Of a stretch of DNA of 64,000 bases, positions 1-12,439 are shown one piece after another (the stretch's first letter is position 1; each line of letters starts with the position of its first letter). A model generated the notes under the pieces. That model ran no database searches and was not told the DNA's origin. It saw only the letters and a program-made list of their open reading frames with translations. Source of the DNA: Ignavibacteria bacterium (GTDB lineage Bacteria; Bacteroidota; Ignavibacteria; Kapaibacteriales; UBA4661). The position numbers and the translations under genes are program-made. The stretch spans positions 19,008-83,007 of the forward strand of contig CANHDJ010000006.1 of NCBI GenBank assembly GCA_947459425.1. Reading direction: 5' to 3'.

Positions 1-3000
1 CGGGCTGTGCTGCACCCAAAAGCCGTTGCGCCAAAGCAGGTGAGTAGTCGTTGATGACCACATCCACTCGCACTGCCGCACCCGGCGCGGCTTCTTTTGG
101 CGAGGCTTGCGCGACAAACGAGACTGCCGCATCATCGGAGCGCACAAGACGCGAATATGCCCGAATATCGCCCTGCACACGATCGTTTCCTGCATCGGCT
201 TCCACAACACCCAGTTTGAAGCCACCAGTGCGAGTCGCACACCGAACCTGAACAAATGCCGATTCGCCTGCACCGATAACACGGTTACTGTTCGCATCTC
301 CATCAACAATGACGAAGGTGCTATCGGTCGTGTTGCCTCGCGCTGTCAGCATTCGCACTGCTCTCAGCGTTTGAGGTTGATTACTCCGATTGCTTACCCG
401 AAGGATTTTCAAGACCGTTTTGCCAACCCGCACCGAATCAAAACTTAACGGCTCAATAAATATCGCCCCGCCGCGCCCCGTGAGCGCCCGCTCAATACTC
501 ACTGAGCGCATACCTTGACCACGTGCATCGGAATAGGCGACTGTCACATTTGCGCGAATCGTATCGGCGCGGTCAGGTTTGAAGAGGACATCAAACGTTG
601 CTGTTGCGTCTTTTGCTAGGCGTGTTCGCGTGAAATTCAGAGCGAAAACATTCGCCATACCGCTTTCAACCTGTGCGGATTCAACCGTCACATCGTCTTC
701 GCCAATATTTACGATTGTACCACTTGCCCGCGCACTATCGCCGATGGTCACTCTGCCCAGATTCACACTGCTAAAGGCAATATCTTGACCAAACGGCGCA
801 ATACGGAACGAAAGCGTATCCGACCACGACGCAAGCAAATCCGACAACTGCGACGATGCACGAACCGACCAGAAATACTGTACACCGCGCTCTAAGAGCG
901 TTCCACGTCCGGCACTTCGCGCAAATGCCAGAACGACGCTATCCCCCTGCTCTGGCGACGAGATACTCACGCTCTGCACATCCGTCCGCAACGCCACGTC
1001 GCGGGCAACAACAAGTGTGTAAGAATCCGCACCAGCGCTTGCTTGCCAACGGAACGATGGGCGTGGGGCGATATTGGTGGATGCCGCCGACGGGAAAATG
1101 AGGCGTGGTGCTGGCACGGACTGTGCCGCACCCGTCACCGATACTCGCACGGGAGCGGTTTGAAGCGTGAGATTGCTCACCAGCGTATTGGTTGCACGGC
1201 AGAAATACGTGCCGACATCCTGCACCTGAATATTGCTCAAAACCAGCGTTGCCGCCGTTGCGCCGCGCAAGCTATTACCATTTTTGAACCACTGGTAGCG
1301 TGTCGCCGTGCCGCCGATAGCCGATGGAATTTCCAGAATATCGCCCACCGTTGCGAGGACATCATCCGACGCTTTCGGAAGGTCTTGCCCGTTTGCGGAG
1401 AAGGATTTGACGCGGGTAAAGGCTTCGAGGCTGCTAAATTCCAGTTGATTACTGTCAAGCAGCACCGTGTCTAGTCTGGAAGAAACAAGTCTGCCCAAAG
1501 GCGCTAGATTGGGGATACGAGTAAGACGGTTGCCCAAAGCGCTTAAAACCTGAAGCCCGGCGGCTTTTGCGAAACTTGTCGGCAATGCACCGGTGAAGCG
1601 GTTATTATCAATCGAAAATTCTTTCAGATTTTCCGCAAAGAATGATGGAATCTCGCCGCTCAATCGGTTCTTCGCCAAACGCAGAATGTTGATGCCCTGC
1701 CAACGAAGAATTGTCTCCGGCAATCTGCCCGTTAGTCCGCAATTTTCCGCCCGTAATTCGCGCAGCATCGGGATATTGCCCCATTCTTCAGGAATACCGC
1801 CTGTGAACGCATTATGACTAACATCAATAACTTCTACGATTGGAGCGCGGGTTGTGCGGGCTGCTTTCGCCGTTACCCGCGCCCCGCCCGTACCGATTTC
1901 GGGCGGCAGAGCGCCCGTGAGCATATTGTTGCTCACCCTCAATTCGCGCAAACTCACCATTGCTCCTAATTGCCAAGGAAGCAGTGACGTAAAACGATTA
2001 AAGCTCAAATTCAGGGTTTCAATTTTGTCCAACTCTGTGATACAGACAGGAATTTCGCCCGTGAGATTGTTCCGGCTTACATCCATAAAGCGGAGATTGC
2101 GGTATTGGCAGATTATTCCCGGCGTAAGCACCCCGGAGAAACGATTATTACTCAAGTTTAAGACTTCTAACTTTCTCAGTGTCGCCAATGTCGTCGGAAG
2201 CTGCCCGTCAAGCAGATTATTCGACAAATCCAGTTCACGCAATTCAGTCAAGGTCGAAATAACAGGTGGAATCGGACCTCGCAAACCCGCATTGGAAAGC
2301 CGTAGAGCAGTAATACGATTATTCTGGGTTTCAAATTGCAAACGACGCGAATCGCCGCCAAGTAAGGCAATAAGAGCGTTCGCAGCATTGGTGTCGCCCT
2401 CCAACGACGACGGGAAAATAATCGCTGTACGAGAATTAACAACGCCAAAGACTGTTCTTAGGCTGATAATACCTTGCGCACTTCTGCTGGCGGCGGTGCT
2501 GAGAATAGCAGTGATGCGGTTTGAGGAGTTAATCACAAAACTTGCCACCGGAATCCCACCGACCTCAATATCCTGCACTGCCGTCAAATTCAATCCGGTA
2601 ATAATGACCTCACCCCCCGGAACAGCATTGGTCGGTGAAAAGCTCGTAATAACCGGCTGCCCGCCCGCTAAAGCAGCATTGATAATCGTTGCTGCGGTTG
2701 AAGCCCCACCATCAACCGACTGAACGGCAAGCGCTCCTGATGCCGGAATGCGGACACTATCCGGGCTGAAGGAAAATGGTACTCTGACGACCACCCGCGA
2801 ACTGTCAAGAATACGGAATGTTGCCGCCGTGCCGCCGATGGTAACACTTGTTATCAAATCCATTGCTGTTCCGGTGAGTGTGATTTCCTCGCCTCCGGCA
2901 GCATCAGGCGGCGTGACACTCAGAATACGCGGCACATTGATAACACGGAAAGCATCATTAACCACAACGCGGTTATAGACACCCAACACATCCATGCTGG

Positions 3001-12439: not shown

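Follow-up and report, generated by a model that had tools for sequence, protein, structure and literature searches.

The window analysed here, a 64-kb stretch of DNA from a bacterium of the Kapaibacteria lineage, begins with a single, real and uninterrupted gene for a surface protein that fills its first 12.4 kb on the minus strand (gene A, encoding protein A). Direct translation, begun at the 12439 ATG and carried on to position 2, gave 4146 open codons and zero stops, compared with 190 and 148 stops in the remaining two minus-strand frames over the same span. The initial annotation had described a giant gene that runs unbroken along the minus strand and starts with a signal peptide, and had asked for a check of this frame for stops; the frame and the signal-like N-terminus bear that description out. 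A stop claimed at 1733-1735 proved to be CTA (Leu), and the frame continues out of the window at its left edge, with the final 210 codons and the stop beyond position 1. The full product has 4356 aa (~440 kDa); protein A has 17 Cys and a biased composition (A, G, T and S = 44%). Gene A is missing from the supplied ORF list because ORFs running off an end are left out by the list's rule; its absence is a window-edge artefact, reflecting neither a gene-calling failure nor a hidden or unusual gene. Recognising it returns ~19% of the window to coding status. Many shadow ORFs lie on the opposite strand. The features of the locus, including domains shared with a second giant protein (protein B, 34151-47389, 4412 aa), are as follows.

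12440..12810, no strand: 371-bp intergenic region separating gene A from a divergent DUF155 gene (12811-13614, plus strand), from reading the sequence
2..12439, minus: coding sequence of giant protein A, codons 1-4146 of 4356 (stop-free frame; identical public contigs; collinear ortholog)
12332..12439, minus: predicted Sec-type signal peptide, aa 1-36, cleavage probably after ALA (inspection and hydropathy profile)
9479..12331, minus: predicted beta-helix region 1, aa 37-987 (module profile matches)
9059..9478, minus: cap domain copy 1, aa 988-1127 (cap profile, E=5e-45; alignment)
8264..9058, minus: X module copy 1, aa 1128-1392, unclassified (duplicated internally as aa 1575-1841)
7766..8263, minus: Cys-rich insert, aa 1393-1558 (Cys positions; 6 of the 17 Cys of protein A)
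6920..7765, minus: X module copy 2, aa 1559-1840 (internal duplication)
5759..6919, minus: predicted beta-helix 2, aa 1841-2227
5264..5758, minus: cap domain copy 2, aa 2228-2392
4451..5263, minus: predicted beta-helix 3, aa 2393-2663 (duplicate of beta-helix 2)
4001..4450, minus: cap domain copy 3, aa 2664-2813 (cap profile, E=1e-51)
2405..4000, minus: six IPT/TIG domains, aa 2814-3345 (Pfam TIG, NCBIfam)
1400..2332, minus: leucine-rich repeat domain, aa 3370-3680 (Pfam LRR_8, LRR_1, LRR_4)
1142..1366, minus: Ig-like domain, aa 3692-3766 (Pfam Ig_3, Ig_2; homologous to B 3777-3826)
800..1117, minus: beta-sandwich dubbed 'FN3-like', aa 3775-3880 (weak Ig_Rha78A_N match)
140..799, minus: two ASH/HYDIN-VesB-type Ig-like domains, aa 3881-3973 and ~3990-4100 (Pfam)

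We considered whether the long open frame might be non-functional, being what is left of a pseudogene, a chimera of repeats created in assembly or a frame left open by chance in DNA of biased composition. The absence of gene A from the ORF list, the heavy share of four residues in its product and the shadow ORFs would all fit such an origin. However, a frame of this length would stay open with random codons at a probability of ~10^-86, no DNA tandem repeats were found, and independent assemblies hold the identical sequence. Substitutions lean to synonymous, with 67 codon differences being synonymous and 36 non-synonymous over the first 697 codons of a 95.7%-identical strain variant. Collinear orthologs exist, and the domains fold with confidence, several of them exceeding Pfam thresholds. 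The open-frame odds, independent assemblies, synonymous skew, orthologs and domains refute a non-functional frame, to which we assign next to no chance. A recent DNA-level repeat expansion was also rejected, given the lack of tandem repeats and the 26-45% identity of the internal copies to each other at the protein level.

Public data supplied the part of the gene beyond the window. Contigs from Logan SRR6754089 and ENA ERZ28613002 are 100% identical to window positions 2811-23614, and gene A was called intact on both as a 4356-aa product with PF18962; ~210 residues of protein A therefore fall outside the window. A JGI contig has it as 4343 aa. The fear that annotation pipelines would fragment or drop the gene was unfounded, as these public calls hold it whole. 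The last 210 residues were deduced from how the gene tables annotate these contigs and from the orthologs L006 and L008. These two collinear orthologs are 58-60% identical to protein A (58.5% over 3761 aa in one alignment), one comes from a Candidatus Kapaibacterium MAG, and both end ~207-210 aa past the last residue of A in the window. Word-index homolog searches returned two matches for the N-terminal 1200 aa, two for the C-terminal 450 aa and four for the X region, and the identical 4356-aa product was not among them. An exact-match search of genome contigs with window bases 1-60 gave no match.

These continuations point to a type IX secretion system (T9SS) sorting domain. The PF18962 match on the identical-contig product was flagged 'weak' for the 4356-aa call and unflagged for the 4343-aa JGI call. 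The tail of ortholog L006 matched Por_Secre_tail at 28.6 bits (cut-off 27), and P0003, which is 59% identical to the C-terminus of A, has PF18962. Judged by the identical public gene and the orthologs, protein A would thus carry the PF18962/TIGR04183 C-terminal domain (CTD) of T9SS type-A cargo, as had been proposed for the region beyond the window. Two more genes in the window, at 34151-47389 and 25908-29963, encode Por_Secre_tail above threshold, and the organism therefore appears to use the T9SS export route. None of the T9SS machinery genes PorK/L/M/N, Sov or PorU/V lies within the 64-kb window.

The other end of protein A has the features of a Sec signal peptide. An in-frame TGA lies 22 codons upstream of its ATG with no start codon in between, and gene callers on the identical public contigs pick the same one. 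The N-terminus reads MQPLMPYWSRVLRTALFRYVLIVIVGLFCTVGQALA and then, past the predicted cleavage site, ITYWW, with a positively charged, Arg-rich n-region and, over aa 16-32, a hydrophobic core whose Kyte-Doolittle mean reaches 2.98, followed by ALA. By inspection and hydropathy profile, this resembles the signal peptide expected of T9SS cargo. The intergenic region upstream presumably holds the promoters of both gene A and the DUF155 gene. A single sigma-70-like match there (12558-12530, minus strand) is not above chance expectation.

Between the signal peptide and the TIG domains, protein A is built from recurring modules. In beta-helix region 1, which has no Pfam or NCBIfam match, the motif 'L.Y.GtaAKtt..EfP..m.G' recurs at ~aa 190, 545, 684, 812 and 914, and the full-module profile matched aa 92-288, 266-489, 483-865 and 860-947 (E 1e-6 to 3e-22). 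Further profile matches surround beta-helix 3 (2400-2538 and 2528-2820). An AF2 model of aa 1840-2400 (pLDDT 90, pTM 0.87) shows a right-handed parallel beta-helix fold, its stacked three-sided coils superposing on solved beta-helices. Each beta-helix terminates in a distinct 140-aa beta-sandwich cap, in which P, G, W, Y and F residues are strongly conserved and no acidic or His residue is invariant. Out of 1.84 billion, 281 cluster representatives matched the module at E<=0.001. The two X module copies (~270 aa each), each probably formed of two beta-rich domains, flank the Cys-rich insert. Homologs of the X module (P0162-P0165) have 31-42% identity; the insert was recovered in the closest orthologs only and gave no family match.

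In database searches, neither the beta-helix/cap module nor the X module had a sequence counterpart in Pfam, NCBIfam or PDB. For the X module this includes an X-module profile search of PDB, while PDB sequence and profile searches with the N-terminal 2810 aa and with cap profiles (5 and 40 sequences) returned nothing significant. A 6fjq 'Fiber' match (E=0.15) and G8 matches in relatives (E ~0.002) were dismissed as below threshold. The cap matches GAIN/ZU5 beta-sandwiches; GAIN, ZU5 and FIIND are known from adhesion GPCRs, ankyrin/UNC5 and NLRP1/CARD8. These matches prompted us to consider autoproteolysis, which was rejected for want of a conserved nucleophile or His: the cap sequences do not appear to hold the HL|T or [SH]F|S site with its nucleophile in a late beta-turn.

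The C-terminal block is composed largely of recognisable families. IPT/TIG copies start at ~aa 2814, 2893, 2978, 3073, 3170 and 3262. Pfam TIG (PF01833), missed by the whole-protein scan, was found when aa 2806-3360 were scanned alone, scoring 91.3 bits over five stretches (cut-off 20.9) and placing the segment in this family; NCBIfam CoaZ_rpt_PGGG scored 51 bits on it. The leucine-rich repeats (LRRs) are of the plant type, 24 residues each with the pattern LxxLxLsnNxLtGxlP, which at least seven fit, and their membership is established by LRR_8 (PF13855, 62.2 bits, cut-off 27) and LRR_1 (PF00560, 71.8 bits, cut-off 20.6). The Ig-like domain scored 28.9 bits with Ig_3, just below the cut-off of 30, and 25.9 bits with Ig_2. 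The first ASH domain was matched by Pfam ASH (32.5 bits, cut-off 27) and HYDIN_VesB_CFA65-like_Ig (28.6 bits, cut-off 25.5), and the second by weak ASH and Cep192_D4 matches only. Hence, the LRR, Ig and ASH parts of the block proposed in the initial annotation were recovered with Pfam. Its FN3-like part was not, since aa 3775-3880, a sandwich conserved in protein B and the orthologs, gave only a sub-threshold Ig_Rha78A_N match (E=0.0034, 18 bits), which does not establish an FN3 identity.

Protein B is the closest point of comparison within the window, and a similarity between the two had been claimed. We recovered it as a collinear alignment of A 3366-4146 with B 3442-4217 (25.7% identity over ~780 aa, E=1e-58), together with many further module-level matches. 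Both proteins carry beta-helix/cap modules (two in B) and TIG repeats, their LRR-Ig-ASH-CTD blocks are collinear, and the two are similar in amino-acid composition. The 'GTAAK' motif occurs at 190 and 545 in A and at 1017 in B. Unlike A, however, protein B begins with an NHL beta-propeller (202 bits, Pfam) and has DUF5122/Rax2-like propeller repeats, whereas A carries a long beta-helix at its N-terminus along with a third cap and two X modules. Over most of the N-terminal halves, no similarity between them was detected. NHL repeats (PF01436), which had been sought in A, gave no match there (whole protein at E<=0.01, N-terminal pieces at E<=1) and are present only in B. The term paralog therefore holds for the shared modules and C-terminal block and does not extend to the differing N-terminal heads; the relation is best read as modular paralogy, in which A and B have module types and a C-terminal block in common, at ~26-32% identity.

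T9SS cargo with a type-A CTD includes large surface adhesins such as the Tannerella forsythia LRR protein BspA and Flavobacterium johnsoniae RemA. Protein A resembles type-A cargo of Bacteroidota in its Sec signal peptide, its Por_Secre_tail (on the full-length gene and orthologs), its modular Ig-like and LRR architecture and its FCB host. It differs in being far larger, at 4356 aa, with ~2800 N-terminal residues that match no curated family. According to a passage of PMC12618676, T9SS cargo combines a Sec signal peptide with a CTD, and a passage of PMC9143113 describes type-A CTD cargo as covalently linked to anionic LPS.

We infer a secretion route, C-terminal anchoring, an orientation and an adhesive function for protein A, which we read, with a probability of roughly 70%, as a T9SS-exported, C-terminally anchored adhesive fibre of a Kapaibacteria-lineage (FCB group) bacterium. 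The Sec system would export the protein via its N-terminal signal peptide, and T9SS would carry it over the outer membrane via the type-A sorting domain just beyond the window. The processed C-terminus may then keep it attached to the cell surface. The conserved IPT/TIG x6-LRR-Ig-ASH block would form a cell-proximal stalk, from which three rigid modules of right-handed beta-helix and beta-sandwich cap, and between these the two X modules, would point outward as a fibre probably >100 nm long. Such a fibre may adhere to other cells, exopolymer or surfaces; no ligand-binding site was identified in protein A.

A beta-helix fold is also seen in type V passengers and in TPS exoproteins (Pet, Hap, pertactin, Ag43, TibA, Vag8, EtpA and HMW1), with which protein A has 8-15% sequence identity. 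It appears to share only the passenger-like beta-helix fold with them, and differs in closing each beta-helix with the distinct cap. No autotransporter or TPS family was found in the whole protein or its pieces with Pfam or NCBIfam. Protein A would have neither the C-terminal beta-barrel nor the N-terminal TPS domain of a type V adhesin because its C-terminus is a T9SS CTD.

Protein A could instead be a secreted or surface-displayed polysaccharide-degrading enzyme whose beta-helices are catalytic, as in pectate and alginate lyases and phage tailspike depolymerases, and whose caps serve as carbohydrate-binding or ancillary beta-sandwiches. We consider this unlikely, as the best-matching group comprises non-enzymatic adhesin passengers, and scans of the region against Pfam and NCBIfam, even in pieces at E<=1, found no family of lyases, hydrolases or PbH1. 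Cap conservation, strong at P, G, W, Y and F and without an invariant acidic or His position, argues in the same direction for the cap only. As a giant and repetitive cargo of T9SS type from the FCB group, protein A might alternatively be a mobile adhesin of the SprB/RemA kind, moved over the cell surface by the T9SS/gliding motor; a passage of PMC8986121 describes Flavobacterium gliding with T9SS-secreted adhesins such as SprB. Yet the identical public gene and the orthologs carry a CTD of the type-A Por_Secre_tail family, no gld, spr or PorP-like gene is adjacent within the window, and no search returned sequence similarity to SprB. The CTD of SprB is of type B and works with a PorP/SprF partner. 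Protein A thus appears to have neither the type-B CTD (TIGR04131) nor the adjacent PorP/SprF-like partner of an SprB-type adhesin, and gliding was not documented for the lineage in the literature found. We regard a gliding role as very improbable.

Taking protein A as an anchored adhesive fibre, the results challenge nothing in current understanding and their novelty is modest. They add a clearly bounded case of a giant surface fibre of T9SS type from the little-studied Kapaibacteria lineage, and such fibres likely determine attachment in the organism's community. New domain families could be curated from the recurrent beta-helix-plus-cap module and the X module. A bolder proposal, doubtful when all its parts are taken jointly, is that the ~480-aa unit of beta-helix and cap is an undescribed block of giant T9SS surface proteins, with a GAIN/ZU5/FIIND-related cap, in a polymorphic surface-fibre system for cell-cell attachment in microbial mats. 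If so, the unit would span Kapaibacteria, Ignavibacteria and Bacteroidota with up to 10 per protein, and the cap may connect rigid rods as a joint that binds ligand, responds to force or can be cleaved. A constant LRR-Ig-ASH-CTD anchor would then bear exchangeable heads, such as the NHL propeller of B or the beta-helix of A. Orthologs of B (P0048 and P0159) are annotated as 'LRR protein/sugar lactone lactonase YvrE'.

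A single minus-strand reading frame, here called gene A, is open from an ATG at 12439 to window position 2, comprising 4146 codons without a stop, as the initial annotation had proposed. The other two minus-strand frames contain 190 and 148 stops over this region, and the chance of a 4146-codon open frame with random codons is about 10^-86. An in-frame TGA lies 22 codons upstream of this ATG, and no possible start comes between the two. A stop had been placed at 1733-1735, but the codon there is CTA (Leu) and the frame exits the window. It had also been correctly observed that the supplied ORF list has only short plus-strand and fragmentary ORFs in this region; under the rule used for that list, ORFs running off a source end were omitted. 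Gene A (1-12439) wholly encloses many plus-strand ORFs 100-289 aa long, for example 1854-2723, and these are antisense shadows of an Ala/Gly/Thr-rich coding region rather than genes.

Public contigs carrying gene A were reached via the DUF155 gene next to it (12811-13614). Two of them, one from Logan (SRR6754089) and the other an 89-kb scaffold from ENA (ERZ28613002), are 100% identical to window positions 2811-23614 (20,804 bases). On both, gene A has the same start and a called product of 4356 aa, which places its final 210 residues and stop just outside the window. Public gene tables list LRR, Ig, HYDIN-type and Por_Secre_tail matches for this product, and a JGI contig carries a 4343-aa version whose PF18962 match is unflagged. 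The earlier concern that pipelines may fragment the gene was not borne out, as public gene callers keep it unfragmented. In a strain variant (GCA_049241505.1, 95.7% identical), 67 synonymous versus 36 non-synonymous codon differences across the first 697 codons fit purifying selection. The product, protein A, has a collinear ortholog from a metagenome (L006), 58.5% identical over 3761 aa, and the C-terminus of a homolog from a Candidatus Kapaibacterium MAG (L008) is 60% identical. Both extend ~207-210 aa beyond the point at which protein A meets the window end, and the L006 tail scores 28.6 bits against Por_Secre_tail (cut-off 27). The alternative that the open frame is a non-gene or an artefact is refuted. 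The relatives that carry names are from MAGs of Kapaibacteriota, Kapabacteria and Ignavibacteria, where they are annotated as 'LRR protein', 'hypothetical' or 'beta strand repeat-containing protein'. Gene A is already in public assemblies, unnamed or as 'LRR protein'.

Domain map of protein A (window 2-12439, minus strand; aa 1-4146 of 4356)
aa 1-36: signal peptide, read from the sequence (Arg-rich n-region, hydrophobic core, ALA)
aa 37-987: beta-helix region 1; four stretches match the beta-helix part of the module profile
aa 988-1127, 2228-2392, 2664-2813: three copies of the cap, a ~140-aa beta-sandwich domain ending each beta-helix
aa 1128-1840: X modules, two unclassified ~270-aa copies flanking a 166-aa insert
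aa 1393-1558 (window 7766-8263): the Cys-rich insert, with 6 of the 17 Cys of protein A, including a CPGC motif
aa 2814-3345 (window 2405-4000): six IPT/TIG domains (TIG, 91 bits, 5 stretches, segment scanned alone)
aa 3370-3680: 24-residue LRRs
C-terminal domains (Pfam): an Ig-like domain, a weakly supported beta-sandwich and two ASH/HYDIN-type Ig domains

The TIG domains went unreported by whole-protein hmmscan of the 4146-aa sequence, although the same region matched as a 555-aa piece, implying that giant, compositionally biased proteins need piecewise scanning. The N-terminal ~2800 aa gave no Pfam or NCBIfam matches, even piecewise at E ≤ 1, and no PDB sequence match. The cap has the consensus FPvGxGxxYlP...sxtEYW...GxY..lGG...FFAxG and recurs twice in protein B (4412 aa, window 34151-47389) and up to ten times in relatives, with a period of ~480 aa. 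Homologs of the X module are few (31-42% identity) and include proteins labelled Oscillatoria and Cytophagales. The Cys-rich insert was found in the closest orthologs only and returned no matches in family and PDB searches. No DNA tandem repeats were detected in gene A, which marks the internal duplications as old.

The proposed paralogy of proteins A and B holds at the level of modules. Residues 3366-4146 of A are collinear with 3442-4217 of B (25.7% identity, E = 1e-58), cap and beta-helix modules share 27-32% identity, TIG repeats share 30-41%, and the motif GTAAK occurs in both. In contrast, an NHL propeller (202 bits) is confined to the N-terminus of protein B, which also has DUF5122/Rax2-type repeats. 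The listed TTG start of protein B precedes an ATG by 4 codons (LETIMLLSS..., window 47377-47389, minus strand); given the signal-peptide-like stretch that follows, the ATG is probably the true start.

The Ig-ASH block is common to ~20 retrieved cluster representatives, and in the several checked it ends ~205-210 residues from the C-terminus. This sequence pattern indicates a family of giant proteins that keep the block next to the anchor constant and vary in their distal parts. Searching with aa 1900-2810 retrieved 281 representatives at E ≤ 0.001, 22 of them at E ≤ 1e-30, among 1.84 billion, and most finds of the beta-helix-plus-cap module were in giants 2-6 thousand residues long. Orthologs of protein A with lengths of 4438 and 4416 aa were among those retrieved. 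Giant, modular T9SS surface proteins that carry beta-helix rods are a known kind, to which protein A belongs. Its novelty is descriptive: the domain map, which is clean, and two modules uncurated in Pfam/NCBIfam, namely the X module and the recurrent beta-helix-plus-cap module.

We modelled aa 1840-2400 with AF2 from a 22-sequence alignment of module copies, which yielded an all-beta structure (pLDDT 90, pTM 0.87).

Structural matches to the model
Pet: 17.3
Vag8: 16.3
TibA: 15.4
EtpA: 14.6
Hap: 14.3

The C-terminal sandwiches of GH66, GH98 and GH2 enzymes appear later in the match list. Adhesion would be the most likely function by analogy, as the closest structural analogues are adhesins; possible targets within the source community are cells, exopolymer and surfaces. 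A catalytic beta-helix, acting as a lyase or depolymerase, is unlikely given that no enzyme family was matched and the cap is without conserved catalytic residues. Even less probable is a gliding adhesin resembling SprB, since the T9SS C-terminal sorting domain (CTD) is type-A and gld, spr and PorP-like neighbours are absent. Foldseek returned no matches at E ≤ 0.001. In the cap, conservation falls on P, G, W, Y and F. Because the cap alignment has neither a conserved His nor an invariant Ser/Thr/Cys, self-cleavage of the GAIN/ZU5 type was not inferred. A bolder and unlikely reading takes the cap for a real GAIN/ZU5 relative in bacteria, serving as a functional joint within a polymorphic system of fibres.

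Returning to a surface adhesin, T9SS cargo is described as bearing a CTD in addition to its Sec signal peptide (PMC12618676), and type-A CTD cargo as being covalently linked to anionic LPS (PMC9143113). Protein A would be exported by Sec, carried across the outer membrane by T9SS and tethered via its C-terminus, which would make the TIG, LRR, Ig and ASH domains membrane-proximal and leave the beta-helix/cap rods distal. Beta-helix regions 1-3 total ~1,600 residues, and aa 37-2813 minus caps ~2,300, the second count taking in the X modules and the Cys-rich insert, which lie outside the AF2 model. With each coil of roughly 22 residues rising ~4.8 Angstrom, we infer ~35-50 nm from these totals, to which ~15 Ig-like/sandwich domains would add a similar length. 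No ligand site was seen, nor any secretion machinery genes in the window. Two further Por_Secre_tail genes above threshold, alongside ordinary housekeeping genes, fit a chromosomal locus in a member of the FCB group that uses T9SS-type export.

Other genes in the window
16655-17224, plus: ECF-type sigma factor
17251-18537, plus: 428-aa ORF with no Pfam matches
18566-19612, plus: 348-aa TIG-domain protein
20996-23053, minus: large outer-membrane protein, 685 aa, OMP_b-brl_2 and OmpA (public gene tables)
23081-25687, minus: adjacent large OmpA outer-membrane protein, 868 aa (public gene tables)
25908-29963, minus: third T9SS-type cargo, 1351 aa; Ig_7 (CHU_C-associated), PKD and Por_Secre_tail above threshold
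47992-50514, minus: SpoIIE-type PP2C phosphatase, 840 aa
50482-53004, plus: divergent NIT-HAMP-MCP chemoreceptor, 840 aa
61483-63114, minus: DUF1501 protein; Por_Secre_tail 25.8 bits, just below the cut-off of 27
63074-63991, minus: adjoining DUF1800 protein

Similarity between the 1351-aa cargo and protein A was undetected. The DUF1800/DUF1501 pair is unusual in that one partner has a T9SS-like tail. The three genes at 16655-19612 could be a sigma/anti-sigma/surface-protein unit. The maximal phosphatase and chemoreceptor ORFs overlap by 33 bp at their 5' ends, so at least one of the two starts is probably over-extended.
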